Below, in pieces: positions 7,942 to 22,774 of a DNA stretch of 31,722 nt. Numbering within the stretch: the first letter of the stretch is position 1; every line of letters begins with the position of its first letter. Made by a program: the position numbers and the translations under genes. This stretch comes from Candidatus Heimdallarchaeota archaeon (lineage in GTDB: Archaea > Asgardarchaeota > Heimdallarchaeia > Hodarchaeales > Hodarchaeaceae), in assembly GCA_048881705.1 (NCBI GenBank), contig JBHLSH010000045.1, forward strand, positions 1 to 31,722, read 5' to 3'. The notes under the pieces were generated by a model. That model saw only the letters and a list, made by a program, of their open reading frames with translations. It did no database searches and had not been told where the DNA came from.

Positions 7942-9783
7942 TCATTCCTGAGTATCATATATTGGAAGAGACAGGTAAAAAGTTGTCCCCTTTGGTAAAT
8001 TCTCTTCATACCAGAGTTTACCTTGATATGCACGGACGATATTATATGATATTGACAAGCCAAATCCACTCCCTCGTTTTTCAGGTGGTCCAATGGCTGC
8101 AAACGGTTTGAAGATTTCGTCTTGACCGTTTTGTGGTATCCCGGGGCCAGAATCGCTAATCCTAAATAACCACTCTCGTGGGTTCTCTTGTTTTCTTATC
8201 TCTACCTCTATAGTTCCCCCATTCGGGCTGAATTTAATCGCATTGTCCAATAGGTTTCGAAGGACACTATTAATTCTATAATCTGCTAGAACTAAGAATT
8301 CCCCTTGATCTGACGGCCATTTTTCTTCAAGTTGGAGCTCCTTTTTCTGCAACTCTACATTATAGGTTCTTTTTATGACGCCAAATTCCTTTTGGAGGTT
8401 CATGGGTTTTAATTCTAGCTCGCTATAATCATGTGTGTCAAGGGTAATAACATATTCCAGGGTATGATCAATGATTTCTTCCATTTCTCGGGCTCGAAAT
8501 GCTATAGATTCAAGATAACGTTCAGATTCAAATGAAGTATTCGCATCTGCAAGGTTAGAACTCAATAAATCGGTGAAACCTCGGATTACATGTATTGAAT
8601 TTTTTAAATCATGAGAAATGATGTTCAAAAGGCTTTGCCTGAATTCATTGCTTGTTTTTAGGAGGTTAGTAACCTCTCGTTCTGATGTGATGTCCTGAAT
8701 GAGATATATGAAACCAATGTGATTGTCACCCTCGTGAAGCGCTTCTATGAGTATCCGAAAAGAACTCCTACGAGATTGATCCGGCAGGGTTCCCTCGATT
8801 TCTAAACTGATTTTTTTCTCCGGATCCCTAGAAAGGGCTACCAAACGCTTTTCAATGTCCTGAATTTGGTCAAGATAGGGAGTTAGGGTTCTCTGTTTAC
8901 TAAGAAACGAGAAAAAATTCATTCCTATGGAAGTCTCGCGAGATCCAGTAAAAAACGGATCAGCGATATAGGTCCAACCTTGCGGATTTACATCGATTAT
9001 CCGATGATCTAGGGTAGTGATTATTATACCCAGATTTGTTGTTCTAAATATCAGATTGTGTGCTGCGGGCAGAATTCCCAATAAATCGAAATTGTACATA
9101 CCGATTAGGAAGATCGAAGCAAAAACCATGAATGTTAATGGTGTTATATTTAGGTAAATGGAGAAAGGGAATAATTCGATTATATCAATCATTAGACCGG
9201 TCAATATAGCTGACACAGAAGCTAGAAAAGTAATAACTTGCTTTTTATAGAGAGGATGCGGGTTTAAGAAGTAGGACCGTGCAACCATAAACACCGCAAC
9301 TAATACAAATGACGCAGATATTATTATGTGCGCCCAAAGGAACGGACCAGGGCTGTATGTCAGTGAAGGAAATGCAGCCGCGTCGAAAAGCTCAATATGG
9401 TCAAAAATCAATTCATGTGATGAATTTGTCAGAACCAGAATGTAAATAAATGTTCCTGGGAAGAACAACGGAACAAGCCGTTTACTATTGACAAAAAAAT
9501 ACTCGGCATAATGAGTAAAGGATAAACTGAACAAGAAAAAGAAAACGGGGAGGTACATGATACTGAAATATTGAACATACAACCAGAAAACCATAGTCGA
9601 ATAATCTACAGCCAAAATCTCGAAAATATAACCAATTCCCCACCACGAGGCGGCACCGGTCATTAAGACGAACATATAATTGGTTCTGGTGCCGGGGTAA
9701 AAAGCAAAGACATAGAGTGTCAATAAACTTACGACGATTGCAGATAGAATATAAGGAATAACTGCCAACGTGAATTCATACAC
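7942..9783 (-). CDS. Sensor histidine kinase: HisKA_7TM-type membrane domain + PAS + HisKA + HATPase_c
   Basis: About 7 TM segments, PAS start GIIITTLDHRIIDVN, H-box SHDLKN, N-box NLLDNAIKF, G1 DSGPGIP, F-box IFKPF, G2 GSGFGLSI. Confidence 0.93.
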   Translation of the reverse strand: MYEFTLAVIPYILSAIVVSLLTLYVFAFYPGTRTNYMFVLMTGAASWWGIGYIFEILAVDYSTMVFWLYVQYFSIMYLPVFFFLFSLSFTHYAEYFFVNSKRLVPLFFPGTFIYILVLTNSSHELIFDHIELFDAAAFPSLTYSPGPFLWAHIIISASFVLVAVFMVARSYFLNPHPLYKKQVITFLASVSAILTGLMIDIIELFPFSIYLNITPLTFMVFASIFLIGMYNFDLLGILPAAHNLIFRTTNLGIIITTLDHRIIDVNPQGWTYIADPFFTGSRETSIGMNFFSFLSKQRTLTPYLDQIQDIEKRLVALSRDPEKKISLEIEGTLPDQSRRSSFRILIEALHEGDNHIGFIYLIQDITSEREVTNLLKTSNEFRQSLLNIISHDLKNSIHVIRGFTDLLSSNLADANTSFESERYLESIAFRAREMEEIIDHTLEYVITLDTHDYSELELKPMNLQKEFGVIKRTYNVELQKKELQLEEKWPSDQGEFLVLADYRINSVLRNLLDNAIKFSPNGGTIEVEIRKQENPREWLFRISDSGPGIPQNGQDEIFKPFAAIGPPEKRGSGFGLSISYNIVRAYQGKLWYEENLPKGTTFYLSLPIYDTQE

Positions 9784-10009: not shown

Positions 10010-11890
10010 TCATTCTTTAATATTTGGGATCCCGGGTATTTCGCAAATGAAAATAGAACCAACAGGTTGGTTGTCCTGCACCCAAACTTTACCGTTGAAT
10101 GATTCAATAATTTCTTGTACTATTGTTAAACCGAGACCAGTTCCGATTTTCGTTTTAGAATCACTGAAGGTCGTGAAAGGTTTGAAGATTTCTTCCTTTA
10201 ATGTGTCAGGTACACCTGGCCCTTGATCTGAAAAGTTAATACGCCAAATTTCTGGAAACTTGATGACTTCGATCTTAATTTCGCCATTAGACGGTGAAAA
10301 TTTGACGGAATTATGAAGAAGGTTGAGGAAAGCACTCTTTAAAGCAAAGTTTGCGGGTACAAGTGCTAAATCTCTTTCAGGAGGCTCGAAAACAACATTT
10401 AGTCTTTTCTCTGTAATCTCGGGTTCTAATTCCTTTAGTACTTGAAAAAGTAATACGGATACATCCACCGAGATTATCTCCTGTGATTTGATATCTGAAT
10501 CAATTTTGAGCCATTTAGTTACATCTTCAATAAGGTTCATTGTAGTAATTGTTTTTGCTTCGATTGCTGCCAAACTCGTTTTGATATCAGAAACATCTTG
10601 TGAGGAATTTCTCAAGGATGCCCTGGCAAGCTCAGAATATCCACTCATCGTCATTAAATGATTCTTCAGGTCGTGAGACAGAAGTTTGAGGATTGTTCCT
10701 GTAAGCTTTTGCTTCTTTTGAAGACTTGTTTCTGCTCTTTTTCTGTCCGTGACGTCACGTAGAATTACCAAAAACCCTAGAAGTTTGTCTTTCCTTCTCA
10801 AACCCGTTGCTAGGAGATCATAGTATCGATTTTCAAGACCAGTGACCTTATGCGGGCTTCTAAGCAGGATTTCTGTACTGCTCACTATTGTTTCTCCAGC
10901 CTCAATCTGCTCTATACCAATCTGAAATAGTGTAGCATAGTAGGCGCGCTCCTGAGCTGCTTCCTTTAACACAGAGACGATGTGCTTTCCATATATTTCC
11001 TGAGGTTGATGTTTGGGGGCAAGAATACGGTATCCTGCTGTATTTAGGTCTATAATTCGCCAATCCTGATCCAGAACAAGCAGTCCGTCCAAAACCTCCT
11101 CGAAAACATAGTTACGGGCAATGGGCGCAATATCAAGGAATCCTGTCTCAAAAATAGCGTACGCAAACAGAATATAAGCAATTACAAACATTATAGGCGT
11201 TAGATCAATAAAAGCTATTGGTGGAATGAGGTTAGTAACTCGAATGATATTGCCAGCGAATGGAAAAAGAAGTCCGGAGAACACAATTAGTATTTGTTTT
11301 TGATAAAGATAATTGACCGCCTTTCTTCTCTGTTCCATGTAAGCCTGGATAAGGAATACCAATCCAGCTATTAATAGAGCATAAGAATAAAGCGTATGAG
11401 AATAAAAAACAATTCCATAATTATGTTCTATTGATACGAAATCTGGAGTTGTTATTAGTTGAGATTGGAGATAAAACATGTTGTGGATATCATTAGTGAC
11501 TAAAACTAGATAATGGATTAGGGGAGGAAGGAATAGGAGCCAAAGAAGTGGCTTCGTGACAGGGTTTCCTCGTTTAGCAAATACAAACACAAAAAAAAGA
11601 AAAAGAGGGGGAACTGCTGTAATTCCAATATATTCAATAAATATCCACATAAACTTGGTTGGAAGGTCGGTTGCCGCAAATTCGAGGGTATACCCTCCGC
11701 ACCAAATCGCGGTAGAAATGACCAATGCTATGAAATAACCGGAATACATTGATCGGGGTCTAAAGAAAAGTGAGTAAAATAAAAGAAAAATCGCACAGGC
11801 TGTTACAACAGCCAATACTAATACGAATACGGAGATCTGATAACCCAAAGTTTTACCCCGTTTCGTTACTCCGCCATGAAGAGTAACCAT
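10010..11890 (-). CDS. Sensor histidine kinase: HisKA_7TM-type membrane domain + PAS + HisKA + HATPase_c (paralogue of the neighbour)
   Basis: About 7 TM segments, DGLLVLDQDWRIIDLN, H-box SHDLKN, NLLHNSVKF, DQGPGVP, IFKPF, GTGLGLTI. Confidence 0.93.
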   Translation of the reverse strand: MVTLHGGVTKRGKTLGYQISVFVLVLAVVTACAIFLLFYSLFFRPRSMYSGYFIALVISTAIWCGGYTLEFAATDLPTKFMWIFIEYIGITAVPPLFLFFVFVFAKRGNPVTKPLLWLLFLPPLIHYLVLVTNDIHNMFYLQSQLITTPDFVSIEHNYGIVFYSHTLYSYALLIAGLVFLIQAYMEQRRKAVNYLYQKQILIVFSGLLFPFAGNIIRVTNLIPPIAFIDLTPIMFVIAYILFAYAIFETGFLDIAPIARNYVFEEVLDGLLVLDQDWRIIDLNTAGYRILAPKHQPQEIYGKHIVSVLKEAAQERAYYATLFQIGIEQIEAGETIVSSTEILLRSPHKVTGLENRYYDLLATGLRRKDKLLGFLVILRDVTDRKRAETSLQKKQKLTGTILKLLSHDLKNHLMTMSGYSELARASLRNSSQDVSDIKTSLAAIEAKTITTMNLIEDVTKWLKIDSDIKSQEIISVDVSVLLFQVLKELEPEITEKRLNVVFEPPERDLALVPANFALKSAFLNLLHNSVKFSPSNGEIKIEVIKFPEIWRINFSDQGPGVPDTLKEEIFKPFTTFSDSKTKIGTGLGLTIVQEIIESFNGKVWVQDNQPVGSIFICEIPGIPNIKE

Positions 11891-12037
11891 TCACTTTTGA
11901 TAAACTAAACCTAAGGTATCAATTAAATATTTGCATTTATTCTTGTCCTGACATTTTGTTACGCAAGTTTCAATTGGAGAAAAGATAATCAAGCGGAGGA
12001 ACAGCTCTTGCCAAGGTAGCTTACCAGGAAGGGTTTA

Positions 12038-12742
12038 TTGAAGATGTTAATCTCGTATCTCGCGCTATATGGGTTCCTTGCACTCATTTCAATTCTCGTA
12101 AAGAGTGTTAAATCCGGTGAGGTAGTAATTGACAATGTTATGCTTCGAAAATTGACTAAGATTAGGGTTCTGCTGAAAATGATGCCTACTGGTTTGGCGG
12201 CTATTTTTGCGTATTTTTGGATAACGAATAATCCTTTCTATCAGCTTGGCCTGGCTGGTGCGTTAATTTTTTGCTTCTTTGGCGACTTTGGTATCGATAA
12301 ACATTTCTTATTGGGATTTGGGCTTTTTTTTGTGGCTCAATTAATGTTCGCGGTAACCTTCTTGGTTGAAGCATTCACTCTCGTGATTCCTGTCCATCTT
12401 ACTATTCCTGGCGTCATCTTTACTGTATTGGTTCTGTTATATATGGTTATTTATCTCAATTACCTTCGATCATCGCCCTCAGGACTTGGAAATTACCTTA
12501 TTCCTGTCATATTATATTGTATTGGAATTAGCTGTATGTTGGTATCTTCGTTTCTCCTTTGGTTGAGTTTAAACGAACTTTATGCTGGATTTATTGTGCT
12601 GGGGGCCATTTCTTTTGTCATTTCCGATTCATTTTTGGGGATCCATCGTTTTCATCATGAAATCAAGTGGCGGGAATTCAAAGTCACTAGCACCTATTAT
12701 CTCGCATTACTTCTACTAAGTTTGAGCGCAATTTATGTATAA
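12038..12742 (+). CDS. YhhN/TMEM86 (lysoplasmalogenase-like) membrane hydrolase; start uncertain (12038, 12044 or 12140)
   Basis: Multi-TM protein with family motifs ALIFCFFGD, GFGLFFVAQ, VILYCIGI, GAISFVISDSFLG and TYYLAL. Confidence 0.85.
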   Translation: MKMLISYLALYGFLALISILVKSVKSGEVVIDNVMLRKLTKIRVLLKMMPTGLAAIFAYFWITNNPFYQLGLAGALIFCFFGDFGIDKHFLLGFGLFFVAQLMFAVTFLVEAFTLVIPVHLTIPGVIFTVLVLLYMVIYLNYLRSSPSGLGNYLIPVILYCIGISCMLVSSFLLWLSLNELYAGFIVLGAISFVISDSFLGIHRFHHEIKWREFKVTSTYYLALLLLSLSAIYV

Positions 12743-12834
12743 TCTCAGTGAAGCCCAAATTTCTTGGATCGGAAAAAAAAATAATTGTAACGAGAAGGAA
12801 AGGTAGCATAAAGATATAGAGGATCGGTGCACCT

Positions 12835-15800
12835 ATGGCTACATTTGATGCTTCTGGGCAAAGAACGGCAATAAAGGGTCATTCAGTTGAGTTAGATGAA
12901 TTAGTTTCTAGCTTAAATACAGATAAAGATAATGGGCTTACCAATGATGAAGCGACGCGTCGTCTCGAGGAGTTTGGCCTCAATGAGATTCCGAAACCTC
13001 AACAGTCATTTTGGCAGGTGTATCTAGCCCCCCTACTCAACACTCTTATTGTGGTTTATCTTGCTATGACCACTGTAATCTGCTTACTGGCTTTGATTTA
13101 CCTGCTTATTAATCCCAAGGACACTTCAATTTGGTGGACCGCTCTGCAATGGTTGATTATTGTTGCGATCAATTTCGGAATTGCAATTGTTCAGCAGGCA
13201 CGGGCACAAAAAAAGATCGAAGCGCTCCAAAAGCTAGCAGCACCTGAAGCAAGAGTAATCAGAGAGGGAAAAGAGTCCGAGATTGATACAATATACCTGG
13301 TTCCGGGTGACGTCGTTAAAATCGCCCAGGGCGATAAGATACCTGCTGATTGCAGGATATTACGATCCAGTTCATTAAGGATTAATGAAGCGAGCTTAAC
13401 GGGAGAAAGTGTTCCAAGTACTAAGGTTGAAACTGGTGATCAAACTTTTCCAGAGGATACACCAATAGGATCCCGTAAAAACATGGTATATAATGGCACA
13501 TTTGTTACGATGGGATCGGGCATCTGTATCGCGGTTAATACGGGAGGAAACACCGAATTCGGAAAGATAAGCCGGGAACTAGAAGAATTAAATACCGGAG
13601 ACATACCCATTAGGGCGAAAGTTAACGTAATCGGGAATTATCTAACTTTTGGCATGCTGATCGTGTTTAGCTTATTATTGATATATCAAACGACTCTTAT
13701 ATTAGATAATATCAAATCTGGCGTCTATGGGACAGAATTGGAATTATTAGGAGACGTTATATTCCAGATAAGCAATATGATAATTAAAGCCATGAGTGTT
13801 GTCCCCATCAACATACCATTACTGACTACTATCGTTCTCCTTACAGGGGTATTGGCCATGGCGAAGCGTAACGTGATTATTCGCAATTTGGCAGCTATAG
13901 AGAGCCTCGGACGCATTTCAATCCTATGTAGCGACAAAACCGGCACCATAACGACAGGACAAATGACAATTCAGCGTTTATGGGATGCAAATGAAGATAA
14001 ATTCTATCAAATCACTGGAATAGGGTATGCACCAGAAGGAAGCATCATTCCTCTTCCCAAATCAAAAACAGAACTTGAAAAACATGAATCAGAGAAACTA
14101 GACCCCGTAATCGTTGATCCGGATTCCTCATTGGGTTTCTTGATAATTAGTGGTATGCTTAACAACGATTCAGAAATTGTCTCAGAAAAAGTGGGAGATA
14201 TCCTAGCATACTCTGGAACAGGTTCTCCTACCGAATCTGCCCTCCTAGCATTATTTAATAAAACTGGACTTTCAAAAGATAGTATTTTGAGGGAATTTCA
14301 CCTTATACGCGAGTACCCGTTTGATTCAAGTCTGAAAAGGATGTCTAAGGTCTTCAAGGTAGATGAAAAAAAACAGCATCTTGTTTTCTGCAAAGGGGCA
14401 ACCGAGGTGGTCCTTGAAAAGTGTCAAAAACTGGGTTATGCAGCTCAGGCACGTCCCCTTAAACCTAAGGATCGAAAGAAGATTCTAGGCCACATGGAAG
14501 AGCTAGCTGCCCAAGGATTTCGTGTATTATCTTTAACATACAAAGAAGTAACCGAGCTACCAGCTAAGAGTGATGAAGAAAGAGATTTAATAGAGGACGG
14601 ACTTTCATACCTTGGATTTGTTTCAATCCTAGATCCACCTAGGGAGCGGGTCAATTATTCTGTGGTGGAAACCATTAGTGCCGGAATAACGCCAATTATG
14701 ATTACGGGGGACTCTTCTACCACAGCACAAGCAATCGCAACAGAAATTGGAATGCTGTCCCAACCACACCATCAGATTCATGAAGGACACGAGGCTGATG
14801 ATCTAAATGAAACAGATTTCTTCGATACGCGAGTATTTGCCCGTGTGGCACCAAAAGACAAGCAGATTATAGTTGAACGATATCAGGATAACACGCGCGT
14901 CGTTGCAATGACAGGAGATGGAGTAAATGATGCCTTGGCATTATCCATGTCGGACGCGGGGATTGCTATGGGAATATCCGGCACAGAGGTTTCAAAACAA
15001 GCAGCAGATCTTGTAATCGCAGATGACAGCTTTAATTCGATTGTCACCGGAATCCGTGAAGGACGGGCCCTCTTTCAACGCATACGTGTGATAATTTTCT
15101 TCTACATCTGTGTAAATTTGGCAGAAGCAGCAGCGTATATCGGGTCAACCTTTGTTTCTGGTTTTATTCAGGGATTTGAACTTATGGATACTCTCCAACG
15201 GGCTTACATCTTTGGAATTGCACACACCTTTCCTCCATTGGCTTTAATCTTTGATAAAATCCCACGCGACATAATGGATCGCGATCCAATTGATAGCGCA
15301 GGAATTTTTAATAAGAAACTAGCAGCGACAATGCTCATCACATCTATCACGCTTGCCATTAGCATTTATTTCTTCTATTTTACCGCATTCTTTGGTTTCA
15401 TTCCAGTTAATGCCACCAATATGAGTGGATATGTACCACTTTTTCAAACGGATCCTGAATGGATTGCTACACCGACCATTCGCAAACTTGCACCCATGAC
15501 ATGGGAACATGCAAAAGCGCGAACATTTATGCATACGATCCTTTATCTAGCCATACCCCTAATTGTCTTATCAATACGCCGAGTAGATAAATCACTGTTT
15601 GATGCAATTAGGGAAGATTCTTGGTGGCCGACATACATTTTTGTATTTGCGATCATCCCTTTCCATATGTTTCTGATGTATTTCCCCGTTATCCAAGAAA
15701 TTCTAAGTCCACTATCATTTTATGTAGATGTCATTGCCCTAGACCTATTAGATTGGATAATTTGCCTCATAGCAGCTCTAATTCCAGTAATCGTGCTAGA

Positions 15801-15843
15801 AACTGCGAAGTGGCTGGTACGGGCTAGTGGAAAATACTATTAA
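12835..15843 (+). CDS. P-type ATPase, P2 (SERCA-like) scaffold with atypical ion-binding site; substrate unknown
   Basis: TGES, DKTGT (D367), FDSSLKRMS, KGATE, DPPR, MITGD, FARVAPKDK, MTGDGVNDA; 10-TM layout; M4 motif PINIP. Confidence 0.95.
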   Translation: MATFDASGQRTAIKGHSVELDELVSSLNTDKDNGLTNDEATRRLEEFGLNEIPKPQQSFWQVYLAPLLNTLIVVYLAMTTVICLLALIYLLINPKDTSIWWTALQWLIIVAINFGIAIVQQARAQKKIEALQKLAAPEARVIREGKESEIDTIYLVPGDVVKIAQGDKIPADCRILRSSSLRINEASLTGESVPSTKVETGDQTFPEDTPIGSRKNMVYNGTFVTMGSGICIAVNTGGNTEFGKISRELEELNTGDIPIRAKVNVIGNYLTFGMLIVFSLLLIYQTTLILDNIKSGVYGTELELLGDVIFQISNMIIKAMSVVPINIPLLTTIVLLTGVLAMAKRNVIIRNLAAIESLGRISILCSDKTGTITTGQMTIQRLWDANEDKFYQITGIGYAPEGSIIPLPKSKTELEKHESEKLDPVIVDPDSSLGFLIISGMLNNDSEIVSEKVGDILAYSGTGSPTESALLALFNKTGLSKDSILREFHLIREYPFDSSLKRMSKVFKVDEKKQHLVFCKGATEVVLEKCQKLGYAAQARPLKPKDRKKILGHMEELAAQGFRVLSLTYKEVTELPAKSDEERDLIEDGLSYLGFVSILDPPRERVNYSVVETISAGITPIMITGDSSTTAQAIATEIGMLSQPHHQIHEGHEADDLNETDFFDTRVFARVAPKDKQIIVERYQDNTRVVAMTGDGVNDALALSMSDAGIAMGISGTEVSKQAADLVIADDSFNSIVTGIREGRALFQRIRVIIFFYICVNLAEAAAYIGSTFVSGFIQGFELMDTLQRAYIFGIAHTFPPLALIFDKIPRDIMDRDPIDSAGIFNKKLAATMLITSITLAISIYFFYFTAFFGFIPVNATNMSGYVPLFQTDPEWIATPTIRKLAPMTWEHAKARTFMHTILYLAIPLIVLSIRRVDKSLFDAIREDSWWPTYIFVFAIIPFHMFLMYFPVIQEILSPLSFYVDVIALDLLDWIICLIAALIPVIVLETAKWLVRASGKYY

Positions 15844-15863
15844 GGATCTTAAATTAGATAATC

Positions 15864-16766
15864 TTATGGTATTAGTTCTGGAAAAAACTGGCTAATAATC
15901 CAATCTCCAACTGGAGGGTGCCGATGTATTGCAGGCCGCCAAATCATTTTAGATTCAATCATATCCCATGGTACATCCAGATTGTCCAGAATTGCCCTCT
16001 GTGCAAACTGACTTAGCCGTTTTAACGTGTTATCAAATGGATATGTCATGTGATCGCAAGGGAACTCTTTCTGCTTCAGATTCAGGCTTTTGGGGGTGTT
16101 AGCCAATGGGAGGGAAGAGGAGGTTATGGGGACAATCCAATCGTATCTTCCAATCGCGTTCAACCAGTGGAGATTTGGGTTCAAAATTGGATCCTGATTC
16201 AAGCGCGATAATAATTGGCTCTTTGGCGTGAGCTGAAAAAAACCAAGGCCCAAATCAGGGGGTACCCGTTCCTTGCTTAAAACCTGTTGAACAGAATTGA
16301 AAAATTCCTCCATTTTAGAGCGATTTCCCCGTGTTATCCCTTGATTCGGAACCGTAAGTAGCACGATTCCAAATATCATCTCTTCTATTCTCGTTAGCTC
16401 CCTCGAATGCTGGAAATTTGGGCTGGTCATGACCCGGGTGATTATCCCTCCCATACTGTGAGATATAATGGTAACCTTTTGCTGGCTTTCTTCGAATACT
16501 AATTCGAGTGAGGTTAATAAATCATTTTCTGCAAGATCGATAATATTGGCATACACGGCATTGCTAAGTGTAAGGCTCCAGCAGTCGATTCCCTTCAAAC
16601 TCAAGTAATTACCTAAAGAATCTTCATAGCGAAACCAAACCTCCCCTGAACTTCCAAAGCCGTGGATAAAGAGGACGGGTGGGCCTTTAGAAAAAGGATT
16701 GTGATGAACGAGCCTTGCGATGCCAAAATCGGTCTTGATCCGATATAGAACAGTATCTAGGGACAT
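15864..16766 (-). CDS. Alpha/beta-hydrolase, lipase/esterase-like
   Basis: Oxyanion motif FIHGFGSS, nucleophile elbow SHSMGG, acid in GRYDWIVP, candidate catalytic His in CDHM. Confidence 0.88.
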   Translation of the reverse strand: MSLDTVLYRIKTDFGIARLVHHNPFSKGPPVLFIHGFGSSGEVWFRYEDSLGNYLSLKGIDCWSLTLSNAVYANIIDLAENDLLTSLELVFEESQQKVTIISHSMGGIITRVMTSPNFQHSRELTRIEEMIFGIVLLTVPNQGITRGNRSKMEEFFNSVQQVLSKERVPPDLGLGFFQLTPKSQLLSRLNQDPILNPNLHWLNAIGRYDWIVPITSSSLPLANTPKSLNLKQKEFPCDHMTYPFDNTLKRLSQFAQRAILDNLDVPWDMIESKMIWRPAIHRHPPVGDWIISQFFPELIP

Positions 16767-16858
16767 TTTTTACCCAGGAATATGCCTTTTTTCCTTATTG
16801 GGCGTGATTGTCATTACTCCTGCTCCCCTAATATAGATATTCGGAAGTAGGTAATGAA

Positions 16859-17347
16859 TCAGAACAGCTTTGGCGGCCATAATCGGAACCATACTAGTCC
16901 CAAAATGCTTGGTCCCTTGATGGTTCCCAATTCCCGGCTATCTGTACTGTACGGCAGGTTATCTCCCAATAAAAAGTAAGAATCCTCCTCAACCTGGAAT
17001 TTCATTTCATGATGAGGGTTGGAGCGACTTGAGGAAAGAATTATATTTGTTCTAGCCGCTTGAATTCTTATTTCTTTCTTATCCATATAAATATATTCCC
17101 CAGGGAGACCCATTACGCGTTTTATTAAGATTTTGGATCCAGTGTTGGAATGATGGAACCCAACTATCAGCATCCTTTCTATAGGATTGGTTTTGAAATA
17201 ATTCAAATCCATTAGAACATATTGGTCAGCAAGGATTGCTGGCTCCATTGAATGGCCATGGATCCGAAGCCATTTCCCTCTAAGTCGCCCAGTGGCAAGT
17301 CTAATAAACGCATCTTTGAGCTTATTACGACCCTTAATTCGTAGCAT
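16859..17347 (-). CDS. sodX: S26-family peptidase, nickel-SOD maturation protease SodX
   Basis: Ser/Lys dyad motifs GHSMEP and LIKRV plus GDN..STDSR. No N-terminal TM anchor. Lies immediately downstream of sodN. Confidence 0.85.
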   Translation of the reverse strand: MLRIKGRNKLKDAFIRLATGRLRGKWLRIHGHSMEPAILADQYVLMDLNYFKTNPIERMLIVGFHHSNTGSKILIKRVMGLPGEYIYMDKKEIRIQAARTNIILSSSRSNPHHEMKFQVEEDSYFLLGDNLPYSTDSRELGTIKGPSILGLVWFRLWPPKLF

Positions 17348-17397
17348 CCCGATGAGATAAAGTTTAAGTATAAAAAATGAAAAAAAAGGCTATTTTG

Positions 17398-17874
17398 CTA
17401 TTTATGCAGAACTAGTTCTGCGCCCGCACCTGCATAAGGAGCCTTAACTCTTATGCTTTCAATACCTTTGATCTTCCAGAAAATCATAGCAAACTCCTGA
17501 ACAGAGTTCAGCAGCTGGGTGGCGATTTCCAAGTTAATTTCCTGGCGGGCTTGGCTTGCCTGCTGCATAATCCTCGGAACCAGATCTGAAATTTCCGGAA
17601 ACTGTTCTACGTGAACAGGTTTGATAAAATCTCCCCATATGACTCTGATTTCGTGTTTAACCAGTTCCGCGTGCTCCTCTTTCGTTGCAATATAACGACT
17701 AAACTTGTGGGCATTGGCCTGATCAGTCCTGTTCGGTAAATCATTGATGAGATTAACCATTCTAATAACGGTATGCGCAGCTACTTGGGCCAAATGCGGA
17801 TCGTAAATCCCACACGGAATATCGCAATGGGCATAACCTATCTCGGGTTTTAGGATTTTTTCCATTATTTTCAT
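17398..17874 (-). CDS. sodN: Nickel-containing superoxide dismutase precursor
   Basis: Ni-hook HCDIPCGIYDP at residue 16 (codon 17827-17829) after a 15-aa leader, followed by helical-bundle motifs KEEHAELVKHEI..IWGDF and FW. AGGTGA SD lies 5 nt before the ATG. Confidence 0.96.
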   Translation of the reverse strand: MKIMEKILKPEIGYAHCDIPCGIYDPHLAQVAAHTVIRMVNLINDLPNRTDQANAHKFSRYIATKEEHAELVKHEIRVIWGDFIKPVHVEQFPEISDLVPRIMQQASQARQEINLEIATQLLNSVQEFAMIFWKIKGIESIRVKAPYAGAGAELVLHK

Positions 17875-18100: not shown

Positions 18101-18811
18101 TTAGGGATCAGATGATTTTGTTGGCCGAACACATAGGATTTTAGAAAGTTGGACAGGAATATTTTCTCTTCGATCATTCATTGCAACGATGACTCCCTTA
18201 TCACTCTTTTCTTCGACCTGTAATTCAATTCCTACCTTATTGATGCCAATGCTTTCCAATGTACGAGCTGTATCGTTGAAATGAGACGAAACACGAGTCA
18301 ATGTAACTAATGTTCCATTGGGAATATCTAGAAGGCAAGGGTCGCTACATCCCAGATCTTTAACCTCGCCATGAGGAATAGGCATACCAAAAGGAGTTTT
18401 CTTGGTTCTTAATTTCTTATATATAAAATCAGCCAGGACGTCAGAAATACCATGTTCGATAAGACAGGCCTGTTCATGGAGGATGTTAAATGGAACATCA
18501 AAGACTTCATATAACATAGCTTCAGCAAGGCGGTGATTCCTAGCAATTCTTCTTGCTGCGTGGAACCCCTTTCTGGTCAGTTTCATACCTTCATATGGCT
18601 TATAATCTACATATTCCTCTTTCTCCAACTTACGGCGTACTATATTCGTCAGCTGGGTTTTCCCTATTTTCCCTCCTAGTCTATTGAGGATTTCTCCCAT
18701 TTTAATGCGTTGATCGTCTGATGAGGCATCTACCGATAGATCAAACAGGCATTCCATTATTTCTTGCTCAGGAACGCGAAGACCCTCGGTGGGACTGTGC
18801 ATTTCGGGCAA
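18101..18811 (-). CDS. DtxR/IdeR/MntR-family metal-dependent repressor with C-terminal FeoA (SH3-like) domain
   Basis: YKPYEGMKLTRKG wing, RNHRLAE, LHEQACLIEH (aligns with DtxR VHDEACRWEH), TPFGMPIP and FeoA-like C-terminus. Confidence 0.92.
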   Translation of the reverse strand: MPEMHSPTEGLRVPEQEIMECLFDLSVDASSDDQRIKMGEILNRLGGKIGKTQLTNIVRRKLEKEEYVDYKPYEGMKLTRKGFHAARRIARNHRLAEAMLYEVFDVPFNILHEQACLIEHGISDVLADFIYKKLRTKKTPFGMPIPHGEVKDLGCSDPCLLDIPNGTLVTLTRVSSHFNDTARTLESIGINKVGIELQVEEKSDKGVIVAMNDRRENIPVQLSKILCVRPTKSSDP

Positions 18812-19924: not shown

Positions 19925-21361
19925 ATGTTAGATATCCTAGAGAAATCCGTAACATTCGGTGAAACACTCGGTGCCAGGTTTGTTGATGCACGGTACGATA
20001 ACCTGACCCTCCGAACCCTCCAGAGAATAAATGATGTTTGGAAGGATGTTTTGATAAGAAGCCGAACTGGAGTAGGTATAACCGCCTATTTTGAGGGTGC
20101 GAAGGGATATGCATTTACTGGAAGTACAGACACGAGTGTTGTTAAAGAAACGGTAAAGCGAGCAGTGAAACTGGCAAAGGCAACTGCATCTGCTGTTTCA
20201 TTAAAATTAGAATTTGAAAATGGCGATGCGGTCAACTCAGCGAGTGCAGACTTAAGCAAACGCCTGATCAAAATTCATCCAGACGAGAAAGATCTTGATT
20301 TCAAGATTGGGATGGTAGATCGGGCTTTGGAGTCGGCCCGGGAACATGGTAAGAACATAAATACGGTGCGTGCTCTTTATGGTGAATTGTATGGTAAGAA
20401 ACTTTTTACGAACTCAGATCATAGTATTATTGACTGGGAATTCGAAGTAGTAGATTTGAGAACGTTGGTCACATCGAAAACAGATGAGGGTCACCTAGTA
20501 AACGGATTTCAGGGATATGGCGGAACCTGGGGCCTGGAAGTTTATAATAATCCAGGTAAAACTCCCGAGGCCATTGGAGCAAGCGCAGGAGAAAGTGCCA
20601 AAGAGCAGTTGGAAGCTAAGGCGTGCCCCGGGGGAAAATTTCGTGCATTGACTGAAAATCGTTTGACAGGCGTTTTGGCACACGAATCTTTCGGACATTT
20701 ATCAGAAGGTGATTTCGTCGTTACAGGAGGATCGCCTTTGACAGATAAAATCGGAAAACATCTGGGTTCTAAATACGCATCAATAATTGATACGGGAACG
20801 CCTGATATCTCTTCATACGGAGGCCTCTGGGTTCCTTTTGATGATCAAGGTATTCGTGGAGGTGAAACGGTTGTTCTTGACCAAGGGATCCTACAGTATT
20901 ATCTACATGATAGGGGTACGGCGAATTATTTAGATCAAAAACCGACGGGAAATTGTAGGGCACTACATTTCGGATATGGACCTATTCCTCGGATGACAAA
21001 CACGTATTTCACCCCAGGCGATTTAAACGAGGAAGAAGCCCTGGAACTATTAGATACGGGTATTTATGCAATTCAGACTTCGGGCGGCCAGGTATCACTT
21101 GATGGATTCTTTGTGTTCAAAGCAGTGCGAGGTTATTGGGTTGAAAATGGAGAAAAAAAATACCCTTTGCGCGAAGTTAGCCTCTCGGGCAATATATTGA
21201 ACCTCCTGGGAATGATTGAAGGTGCAACCCGTGATCTCAGCCTTAACAGTGGATATTTCGGAGGTTGTGGCAAAGGTGGTCAATATCCATTACCAGTTGG
21301 ATTGGGCGGACCCAAACTGGTGTTTTCTGAAGTCACATTTGGGGGTAAGGCTGGAACTTGA
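19925..21361 (+). CDS. tldD: TldD metalloprotease subunit (copy 2)
   Basis: HESFGH, PFDDQG, GNCRA..PIPRMTNT, GGCGK. Confidence 0.95.
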   Translation: MLDILEKSVTFGETLGARFVDARYDNLTLRTLQRINDVWKDVLIRSRTGVGITAYFEGAKGYAFTGSTDTSVVKETVKRAVKLAKATASAVSLKLEFENGDAVNSASADLSKRLIKIHPDEKDLDFKIGMVDRALESAREHGKNINTVRALYGELYGKKLFTNSDHSIIDWEFEVVDLRTLVTSKTDEGHLVNGFQGYGGTWGLEVYNNPGKTPEAIGASAGESAKEQLEAKACPGGKFRALTENRLTGVLAHESFGHLSEGDFVVTGGSPLTDKIGKHLGSKYASIIDTGTPDISSYGGLWVPFDDQGIRGGETVVLDQGILQYYLHDRGTANYLDQKPTGNCRALHFGYGPIPRMTNTYFTPGDLNEEEALELLDTGIYAIQTSGGQVSLDGFFVFKAVRGYWVENGEKKYPLREVSLSGNILNLLGMIEGATRDLSLNSGYFGGCGKGGQYPLPVGLGGPKLVFSEVTFGGKAGT

Positions 21362-21379: not shown

Positions 21380-22774
21380 ATGGAGTTTGAAACCATTAAA
21401 GACGAACTATTGGCTACGATTGATTCTTCTCTGAAGTATTCCCAATCTCTTGATACCAACGCAGAATTCGAAATCTATTTGGTCTATCTTAACAAATCAG
21501 AAGTAAATATAAATCAGGGGATGGTAGAGGCTGCTGACGGGATTTTGGCAGGAAATGCAGTTCGAGTTGTGACTGGCTTTGAAAGGCAAAAAAAAGTTGC
21601 TTTTTCTGCTGGAAGTGGAATAGATACAGATTCTGTGAAAAAAAATTTGAGAGAAGCACTTGCTATCAATATAAATCTAAACATAACGGATCCCCGATTT
21701 TTCGATTTTTGTGATCCGAAGCAACCCGGACACGAAGGATTGCTCAACGATGAGATACTCACCTTAGGTACAGCTGATCTTGTTCCCGGGAACATGGACT
21801 TAATAAAAGAATGCGCTGCTGTCGATTCCCGAATTAGGCGCGTTTCCAGCTCATCCACCGTTATATGGGGAGGTTTTGCCATTGGGAATACAAGGGGTAT
21901 TCAACAAGCTTCTCGAACCACTAGAAACACTTTTTCCGTGGATTGTACAGCGATTGGAGAAAACGATGAGAGAAAAGAAGGTTTTATCTATGAAACAGAG
22001 AGATCTAGGCTCGTAGATATCCAAGGAATGGGGAAAAAAGCCGGAAACAGGGCCATTGGCCAATTAGGAGGCATAAACCTTGATAAAACCGTGGTTCTTC
22101 CAACTATATGGGATCCAAATGCCGCTGCCTCGTATATTAGATCTGGACTTGGTCAATCCGCCAATGGGGCATCAGTGGTAGAAGGTCTTTCCCCTCTTGC
22201 CGATAAAATCGGTGAAAAAATCGCCAATCCCATTTTTTCGCTGGTTGATGACGGTCAAAAGCCAAATGGAATATCTACTCATGCAATTGACCGCGAGGGG
22301 TATCCACAACAGAAAAATATCATTATAGAAGACGGAGTCCTCAAATCTTTCTTATTTAACTCATATTATGGTAATATTTTTGGTACTGAATCCACAGGAA
22401 ATTGTACTCGATCATCCAACCTCCCTTATGAGGGTACCCCCGGCATTCAAGGACTAAACTTTGAAACCAGTGTTGGCATAAAATCTGAGGATACACTAGT
22501 TCATTCCATTGATAGAAGGGGCATTTTAATCCGTGAAATGCCTATGGGTATGTTTCACAGTAACGTATCTACCGGAGAATTTTCAGTTGTTGCCAATGAA
22601 TCATACCTAATCGAAAATGGAACCATTCAAGGACCTATCAGAGCTACGTCAGTTGCAGGGAATTTTTATGACGGTTTGAAGAATATCAGGGAGCTAGCCG
22701 ATAATAAAAGAAAAACCCCTTATGGAGTAGAAACGCCTAGTATTTTGTTTGACGGATTCTCCATTGTGGCCTAA
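21380..22774 (+). CDS. pmbA: TldE/PmbA subunit (copy 2)
   Basis: IDREGYP, STGNC, TGEFS, VAGNF; no HExxxH; GGAGGT SD; follows tldD copy 2 by 18 nt. Confidence 0.92.
   Translation: MEFETIKDELLATIDSSLKYSQSLDTNAEFEIYLVYLNKSEVNINQGMVEAADGILAGNAVRVVTGFERQKKVAFSAGSGIDTDSVKKNLREALAININLNITDPRFFDFCDPKQPGHEGLLNDEILTLGTADLVPGNMDLIKECAAVDSRIRRVSSSSTVIWGGFAIGNTRGIQQASRTTRNTFSVDCTAIGENDERKEGFIYETERSRLVDIQGMGKKAGNRAIGQLGGINLDKTVVLPTIWDPNAAASYIRSGLGQSANGASVVEGLSPLADKIGEKIANPIFSLVDDGQKPNGISTHAIDREGYPQQKNIIIEDGVLKSFLFNSYYGNIFGTESTGNCTRSSNLPYEGTPGIQGLNFETSVGIKSEDTLVHSIDRRGILIREMPMGMFHSNVSTGEFSVVANESYLIENGTIQGPIRATSVAGNFYDGLKNIRELADNKRKTPYGVETPSILFDGFSIVA

Follow-up and report, generated by a model that had tools for sequence, protein, structure and literature searches.

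A P-type ATPase clade of Asgard archaea with a PINIP motif in M4 and a putatively rebuilt single ion site

The 31,722-nucleotide stretch of a Candidatus Heimdallarchaeota archaeon analyzed here (the window) carries a single uninterrupted reading frame of 1002 codons at positions 12835-15843 of the forward strand, encoding a P-type ATPase of 1002 amino acids (P0001). The translation contains the Pfam domains Cation_ATPase_N, E1-E2_ATPase, Cation_ATPase, Hydrolase, and Cation_ATPase_C, which together make up the full P2/P3-type architecture, and an orthologue that is 93% identical spans residues 1-1002. The protein is a member of an Asgard clade that we refer to by the sequence PINIP in its fourth transmembrane helix (M4). 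The evidence presented below points to a working P2-type ATPase coupled to one rebuilt site, for which the likeliest cargo is probably a small cation other than Ca2+.

The catalytic motifs of a P-type ATPase are all present on the forward strand of the window, with the dephosphorylation motif TGES of the actuator (A) domain at residues 189-192 (13399..13410), the phosphorylation motif DKTGT, which includes Asp367, at 13933..13947, and the hinge motif GDGVND of the phosphorylation (P) domain at 14914..14931. In an alignment of 133 family members, with pairwise identity down to 35% and identity to the pump of up to 93%, the catalytic motifs are invariant; within TGES, Gly190 and Glu191 are strictly invariant and Thr189 and Ser192 are found in at least 90%. 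The translation and this conservation support an intact, functional-looking pump rather than a gene in decay, in agreement with the original prediction, which had been made from the letters of the window.

The transport site is the basis on which P-type ATPases are classified, and its residues set the protein apart. Residues Pro324-Ile325-Asn326-Ile327-Pro328 (13804..13818) lie at the unwound part of M4, with Ile325 at the position of SERCA Glu309 and Asn326 at that of Gly310. The M5 sequence Asn761-Leu-Ala-Glu764 (NLAE, 15115..15126) retains the site I ligands equivalent to SERCA Asn768 and Glu771. In M6, which runs from Gln788 to Pro801 (QRAYIFGIAHTFPP, 15196..15237), Phe793, Ala796, and His797 are found at the positions of SERCA Asn796, Thr799, and Asp800. 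A HMMER alignment to Listeria LMCA1 places Ile325 under the M4 gating Glu and Phe793/Ala796/His797 under the M6 N/N(T)/D residues, and an independent alignment to Na,K-ATPase agrees on the register of M6. The M4, M5, and M6 assignments of the original prediction are thereby upheld, that for M4 by the translation and LMCA1, that for M6 by LMCA1 and Na,K-ATPase, and that for M5 by both pumps and the family alignment. An AlphaFold model built from the family alignment (mean predicted local distance difference test score 88.6, predicted template modeling score 0.83) has the M4 helix broken at residues 321-325 and M6 at 797-798; the predicted breaks at Ile325 and His797 are as expected for residues lining the canonical site.

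Conservation of these positions is high across the 133 sequences. Pro324 and Glu764 are invariant (Glu764 in 133/133), and His797 is present in 132, Ile325 in 127, Asn761 in 126, and Phe793 in 100, with Ile325, Asn326, Ile327, Pro328, Asn761, and His797 each found at 92-99%. Asn326 is kept in 123 members and replaced by Ser, Thr, or Met in the remainder, eight of the family reading PISIP instead of PINIP, and a basal subgroup carries PFNFP or PWNFP in M4 while retaining the Asn as well as Glu in M5 and His in M6. An Asn in M2 (Asn113) is present in 132/133 members and presumably corresponds to SERCA Asn101 and AHA2 Asn106, a position we assign by hand alignment. Because the substitutions are near-fixed in homologues sharing only 35% identity, they represent a family trait and not drift, and the pattern is far beyond chance or sequencing error. 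The idea that they might be unique to one genome does not hold, given that more than 130 homologues have PINIP as well as the Glu of M5 and the His of M6 near-fixed.

The situation in M8 is more graded. Ile907 (15553..15555) falls in a column occupied by Gln (57) or Glu (38) in 109 canonical P2 representatives, which is the reason for equating it with the SERCA Glu908 column. Loss of the M8 Glu or Gln, a less certain call of the original prediction, is thus correct for this protein, but it is a trait of the subclade only: 97/133 family members retain Glu, and the Ile found in 34/133 is limited to the pump's own subclade (34 sequences, 62-93% identical to the pump). Similarly, the extra membrane-embedded Arg that had been pointed out (Arg789) is present here but is not a feature of the family, in which residue 789 is R (74), Q (19), S (14), H (7), L (7), or K (6). 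Since the M8 column matches that of Glu908 and 97 members keep the Glu, the ancestral site of the family, as read from these alignments, is the whole of SERCA site I, comprising the M5 Asn and Glu and the M8 Glu, with the bridging M6 Asp changed to His. In it, Ile and Phe take the place of the site-II-specific ligands Glu309 and Asn796. The host protein has gone one step beyond this ancestral arrangement, retaining a single Glu and a single His together with two Asn. Over the six substituted positions the side-chain volume increases by about 200 cubic angstroms, so the pocket is filled and not widened.

More than 120 full-length relatives (42-93% identity) were found in a word-indexed search, and an exhaustive search of 1.84 billion representatives added about 45 further 50%-identity clusters of the family. 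Among the full-length proteins listed by the latter, M4 shifts from P-x-N-x-P to PEGLP between about 480 and 465 bits. A contig scan centered on M4 settled on the generic pattern C[ST]DKTGT[IML]T and returned mostly ordinary pumps, with a single family member (L007); the remaining loci served to supply reference genomes.

The protein reaches the cut-off of only one NCBIfam profile, the generic P-type superfamily model TIGR01494 (246.6 bits versus 62.3). It misses those of the SERCA-type (TIGR01116, 399.1 versus 703.4), PMR1-type (TIGR01522, 426.2 versus 798.3), Na,K-ATPase (TIGR01106, 348 versus 946), P3A (TIGR01647, 320.2 versus 615.5), P5 (TIGR01657, 237.1 versus 618), and P4 (TIGR01652, 104.1 versus 431) profiles. 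The ranking in bits is PMR1-type 426, fungal Na/K 426, SERCA 399, PMCA 367, Na,K 348, P3A 320, P3B 290, P5 237, P1B 222, and P4 104, the lowest of all classes. The M4 sequence VPINIP also differs from the PP(E/A)LP of P5 pumps.

A maximum likelihood tree (quick LG+G4 search, 99 sequences) was calculated from 45 family members, 40 canonical representatives, the host genome's other pumps, with its three P1B pumps as the outgroup, and references consisting of four archaeal P3A pumps and one MgtA above profile cut-offs and four further pumps below them. The family forms one clade with a support of 100 in the Shimodaira-Hasegawa-like approximate likelihood ratio test (SH-aLRT) and a stem of 0.30. 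It lies within a group (SH-aLRT 99) alongside prokaryotic P2A-like pumps, with P3A, P3B, and P1B pumps outside and the P3A references in a clade of their own (support 100). The P-type phylogeny that had been proposed as a check is therefore available for P2, P3A, P3B, and P1B pumps and places the family beside P2A-like pumps; eukaryotic P4 and P5 sequences are not among the 99. Inside the group there is a polytomy, which leaves a sister position to the P2A-like pumps indistinguishable from a nested position among them.

The fold leads to the same class. When the model was compared with the PDB by Foldseek, its top 50 hits were all P2 pumps (SPCA1, SERCA, and Na,K- or H,K-ATPases), with no P4 structure among them. 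By sequence, residues 735-1002 on their own matched nothing in the PDB at 1e-5, and with residues 700-1002 the match is carried by the end of the P-domain, the best hits being Na,K-/H,K-ATPases (70.9 bits). These P2C pumps, the best PDB match to the C-terminal third, have the M5 sequence "N-I/L-A/P-E" in common with the PINIP pump, whereas the equivalents of their M6 residues Asp804 and Asp808 are Phe and His in the PINIP pump, which has no conserved β-subunit gene nearby. By tree group and fold the pump is P2-class in the broad sense. The proposal of a distinct subfamily on a P2 chassis is supported by the single clade and the P2 fold, and no description of it was found in the literature searched.

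Relatives that bear a name are labeled as Asgard archaea (Hodarchaeales, Heimdall-, Thor-, Odin-, Hel-, and Promethearchaeota), the one exception being labeled Korarchaeota. Matches at E≤1e-100 were found in 362/400 Asgard genomes; 71 of these, with best matches of 1e-105 to 1e-146, were subtracted as ordinary P2A pumps, a range that overlaps basal family variants so that a few of the subtracted genomes may be members, and E<1e-150 was counted as family. By hand count, with two candidates scored per genome, about 291/400 Asgard genomes (73%) from 17/33 taxonomic families carry the family, and such a distribution indicates a core function, not an oddity. The Korarchaeota-labeled protein (P0128) is sister (support 100) to a sequence of family f28 of the Asgard phylum, and an Arf-like GTPase gene lies on its contig; the label of these metagenome-assembled genomes (MAGs) may be wrong or outdated.

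Outside Asgard archaea, the family was found in 2/401 sampled genomes of Thermoproteota, the phylum to which a Bathyarchaeota MAG belongs. One genome (G482, locus L177, G482:C27) has a typical copy with PINIP, NLAE, the M6 His, and the M8 Glu. The other, the Bathyarchaeota MAG (G401, locus L178, G401:C12:277787-280669), has a variant on a contig of at least 280 kb, with PVSIP in M4, S..E in M5, Gln replacing the His, and Gln replacing the M8 Glu. The nearest group for both copies is Odinarchaeota as labeled by NCBI, which fits transfer out of Asgard archaea; for G482, a binning error is a conceivable alternative.

Tandem copies are found in several Asgard lineages, with a PINLP gene beside a PINIP gene in five head-to-tail pairs (L148, L158-L162) and two PINIP copies at L128. 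In the tree, L158, L160, and L161 each have their two copies in different old subclades, so these pairs appear to stem from an ancient duplication. At L128 and L148, the two copies are closely related.

Taken as a whole, the data are best explained by an ordinary P-type catalytic cycle, in which Asp367 of DKTGT would be phosphorylated and TGES would act in dephosphorylation, coupled to one ion site. Site II of SERCA (Glu309 and Asn796), which all single-site Ca2+ pumps retain, is plugged by Ile325 and Phe793. Site I survives in altered form, with Asn761 and Glu764 of M5, His797 in place of the bridging M6 Asp, and a new polar residue, Asn326, in the M4 break. By homology to SERCA, and not from coordinates, Asn326, Asn761, Glu764, and His797 would face one cavity and bind a small cation. 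A small ion is favored over a lipid or organic anion because the site is filled and its polar residues are invariant. The particular ion and the direction of transport are likewise inferred.

Within the small-cation explanation, H+ or a monovalent cation held on the Glu-His pair is a tentative first guess, since the site resembles the logic of P3A proton pumps: a buried Glu-His pair would lie by the M2 Asn, with a hydrophobic residue at the Glu309 position. P3A H+-ATPases (AHA2, Pma1, and the archaeal references L165-L167 and L170) share with the PINIP pump a hydrophobic residue after the M4 Pro in a P-x-x-x-P motif, which those archaeal members have as PAALP, PVAMP, or PVALP, as well as the M2 Asn and a single titratable residue at the M6 break. 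They differ from it in that this M6 residue is Asp in P3A and His here, in forming a separate clade, and in the profile score (320 versus 615 bits). The original prediction had held that the protein cannot be a standard Ca2+, Na+, or H+ pump. Ca2+ can indeed not be bound in the manner of SERCA, SPCA, or LMCA1, but the exclusion of H+ is unwarranted, since a Glu and a His paired in a buried position make a competent proton site. A divalent metal of borderline character (Mn2+, Fe2+, Co2+, Ni2+, or Zn2+) is a somewhat more doubtful cargo overall; the change from a hard Asp to a borderline His, together with the two Glu of most members, equally suggests one of these metals.

Several points weigh against this explanation of a small cation on a rebuilt site. 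Genuine P3A H+-ATPases, scoring above the TIGR01647 cut-off, occur in 67/400 Asgard genomes from 20 genera and are found together with the family in many of them, so that a plain proton pump would be partly redundant. The host pump offers one carboxylate and one His, which are few ligands for a divalent metal. The G401 variant, with Gln for the His, indicates that the His is not indispensable in every member. The geometry of the site is deduced from homology to SERCA. Finally, no operon partner, regulator, or riboswitch pointing to an ion was found at the locus. A complementary distribution of P3A pumps and the PINIP family was considered and rejected, as the two co-occur; the P3A carriers include G071 and G076, of the same genus as the host, and G307/G308. 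The spread of P3A pumps over Asgard genomes is itself wider than the "mainly methanogens" given in a 2023 review (Palmgren).

The best surviving alternative, though an unlikely one, is that the protein is still a Ca2+ pump (or a Ca2+/Mn2+ or Mg2+ pump) that binds a hard divalent cation in what is left of site I. Source annotations of the family read "Ca2+-transporting ATPase" or "cation-translocating P-type ATPase," the best-scoring profiles are the PMR1 and SERCA types, and the equivalents of Asn768 and Glu771, and in most members of Glu908, are kept. P2A Ca2+-ATPases (LMCA1, PDB codes 6zhf and 9euq; human SPCA1, 8iwp and 7yag; SERCA1/2) also share with the PINIP pump the domain order, length, ten helices, TGES/DKTGT/GDGVND motifs, Cation_ATPase_N/C domains, and M5 N..E, and they are its best sequence matches (E 2.5e-108 to 1e-96), best folds (template modeling score about 0.7), and tree neighbors. 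Yet the scores are far under the equivalog cut-offs (426 versus 798 and 399 versus 703), all of which are missed by 300-370 bits. The equivalents of Glu309, Asn796, Thr799, and Asp800 are Ile, Phe, Ala, and His, and Gly310 is Asn; among these, the gating Glu, Asn796, and Asp800, which every characterized Ca2+ pump needs, are replaced clade-wide. The Asp-to-His change disfavors hard cations on grounds of coordination chemistry, the pump's subclade also lacks the M8 Glu, and the host genome already has two canonical pumps.

Slightly less probable still is a pump of the flippase type that moves a lipid or another bulky or organic substrate, in which the Ile of PINIP would form a hydrophobic gate as in P4-ATPases, a reading advanced in the original prediction. 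P4 pumps are characterized by DGET, PISL without the second Pro, an M5 Lys, and usually a CDC50 subunit, which P4B pumps do not need. P4 flippases (Drs2, ATP8A1/2, ATP11C) and the PINIP pump have in common the Ile after the M4 Pro and the absence of acidic M4/M6 cation ligands, and the eight family members with PISIP come even closer. On the other hand, TGES is found in place of DGET, M5 has Asn and not Lys, and the second M4 Pro (Pro328) is retained, which gives the P-x-x-x-P spacing of P2 and P3 pumps. Cation_ATPase_N/C domains are present, and no Pfam match to the PhoLip_ATPase domains (PhoLip_ATPase_N/C) was found in the pump at E≤0.01. The P4 profile ranks lowest, the 50 best folds are all P2, and the clade lies beside P2A-like pumps in the tree. 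Moreover, an invariant buried Glu and His would be unexpected in a lipid groove, and the side chains of the site gain volume.

The neighborhood might also be taken to suggest a lipid. In the window the pump lies between the gene for a YhhN-family membrane protein, which is upstream on the same strand (12038-12742, +), and that for a PGAP1-like α/β hydrolase, and single loci elsewhere are found beside Glycos_transf_4 (family-4 glycosyltransferase), polyprenyl synthase, UbiA, or STT3 genes. A census of 431 neighbor genes at 46 loci from about 40 genera, supplemented by seven exact-protein look-ups, revealed no gene family recurring in more than four taxonomic families. YhhN, together with a DtxR-like repressor and a hexapeptide transferase, is near the pump within this genus only, with other genes inserted between, and the hydrolase, an S26 peptidase, and a Ni-superoxide dismutase adjoin it only in the 93% identical twin. 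A YhhN/hydrolase "lipid locus" was accordingly rejected as residual synteny at the genus level. That the cargo is a lipid or another bulky molecule is a minority reading for which only the Ile speaks; were it correct, which we consider improbable, it would represent an independent prokaryotic invention of a flippase-like pump in the lineage ancestral to eukaryotes. The suggested relevance to the origin of P4-ATPases finds no support in the position of the clade beside prokaryotic P2A-like pumps, and on present evidence the clade has no bearing on the origin of eukaryotic lipid flippases.

A non-transporting, ATP-driven sensor or regulator (a "transceptor"), or a pump moving only its built-in charge, would account for the loss of one ion site and, in the pump's subclade, of a third ligand and for Arg789 near the site, but is very improbable given that the remaining site residues and all ten membrane helices are strongly conserved clade-wide, which argues for substrate binding, that Arg789 is not conserved across the family, and that Pfam identifies no added sensory or regulatory domain.

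To our knowledge, every characterized single-site P2 pump keeps site II. In LMCA1, SPCA, and PMCA, site II is kept and site I lost, whereas the PINIP clade does the reverse, and it is present in about three-quarters of the genomes sampled from the closest archaeal relatives of eukaryotes. The evidence is compatible with a cargo not known for any P2-type pump. A pump operating with a Glu-His pair on site I alone would be the first such P-type pump and form a new subclass beside P2A-D, with which the evidence is likewise compatible. Once its ion is identified, this textbook enzyme family would gain a substrate class or a new mode of binding, and hundreds of annotations as "Ca2+-ATPase" would be corrected; claims about Ca2+ signaling in Asgard archaea partly rest on these (PMC7997004). 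The family appears to be undescribed in the literature searched: "PINIP" together with ATPase returned 0 papers, and searches on FUPA families and Asgard names found nothing on the clade. The 2023 review is silent on Asgard pumps and describes P4 and P5 as confined to eukaryotes, and a survey of Asgard transporters lists just a "putative Ca2+ ATPase." Contributed here are the finding on the M8 Glu, the two members from outside Asgard archaea, the negative neighbor census, and the negative P3A complementarity test.

The host assembly consists of 155 contigs (3.96 Mb, 91% complete) and encodes six P-type ATPases: two canonical P2A-like pumps, with PEGLP or PEGLA in M4, N..E in M5, and N..TD in M6, three P1B metal pumps, and the PINIP pump. 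No P3A pump was found in this genome. With two canonical and three P1B pumps already present, the PINIP pump is a sixth that would have a different job.

The pump stands alone in its locus. No β-subunit or CDC50-like partner gene is found beside it and no neighbor is conserved at the 46 loci, the search having covered the neighborhood and not the rest of the genome. A promoter and terminator scan of 11800-16900 gave counts not above those of shuffled sequences, and no operator-like palindrome was seen by eye in two upstream regions. The widest recurrent neighbor in the census is an Arf-family small GTPase, found no more than three genes from the pump at 4 loci in four taxonomic families (L090/L091, +2 genes; L093, -2; L148, -1; and L129). 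Such genes appear to be abundant in Asgard genomes, and the proximity is probably due to chance.

Downstream of the pump, on the opposite strand, the PGAP1-like hydrolase is followed by the S26 peptidase, the Ni-superoxide dismutase (Sod_Ni, E 8.6e-44), and a DtxR-type metal repressor, with the dismutase beside the peptidase at 16859-17874 (-) and the repressor at 18101-18811 (-). The peptidase could be a maturation protease for the dismutase. The three genes make up an oxygen-defense cassette in an Asgard archaeon, which adjoins the pump in this genome and its 93% identical relative alone. Further downstream are a PmbA/TldD-type metallopeptidase gene identified by Pfam (19925-21361, +) and, after it, a second open reading frame of similar length (21380-22774, +). 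Upstream, two paralogous histidine kinases with a seven-transmembrane HisKA_7TM sensor domain, one of them with a PAS domain, lie in tandem at 7942-9783 and 10010-11890 on the reverse strand, and the gene order of this kinase pair is kept in the nearest relative (L125).

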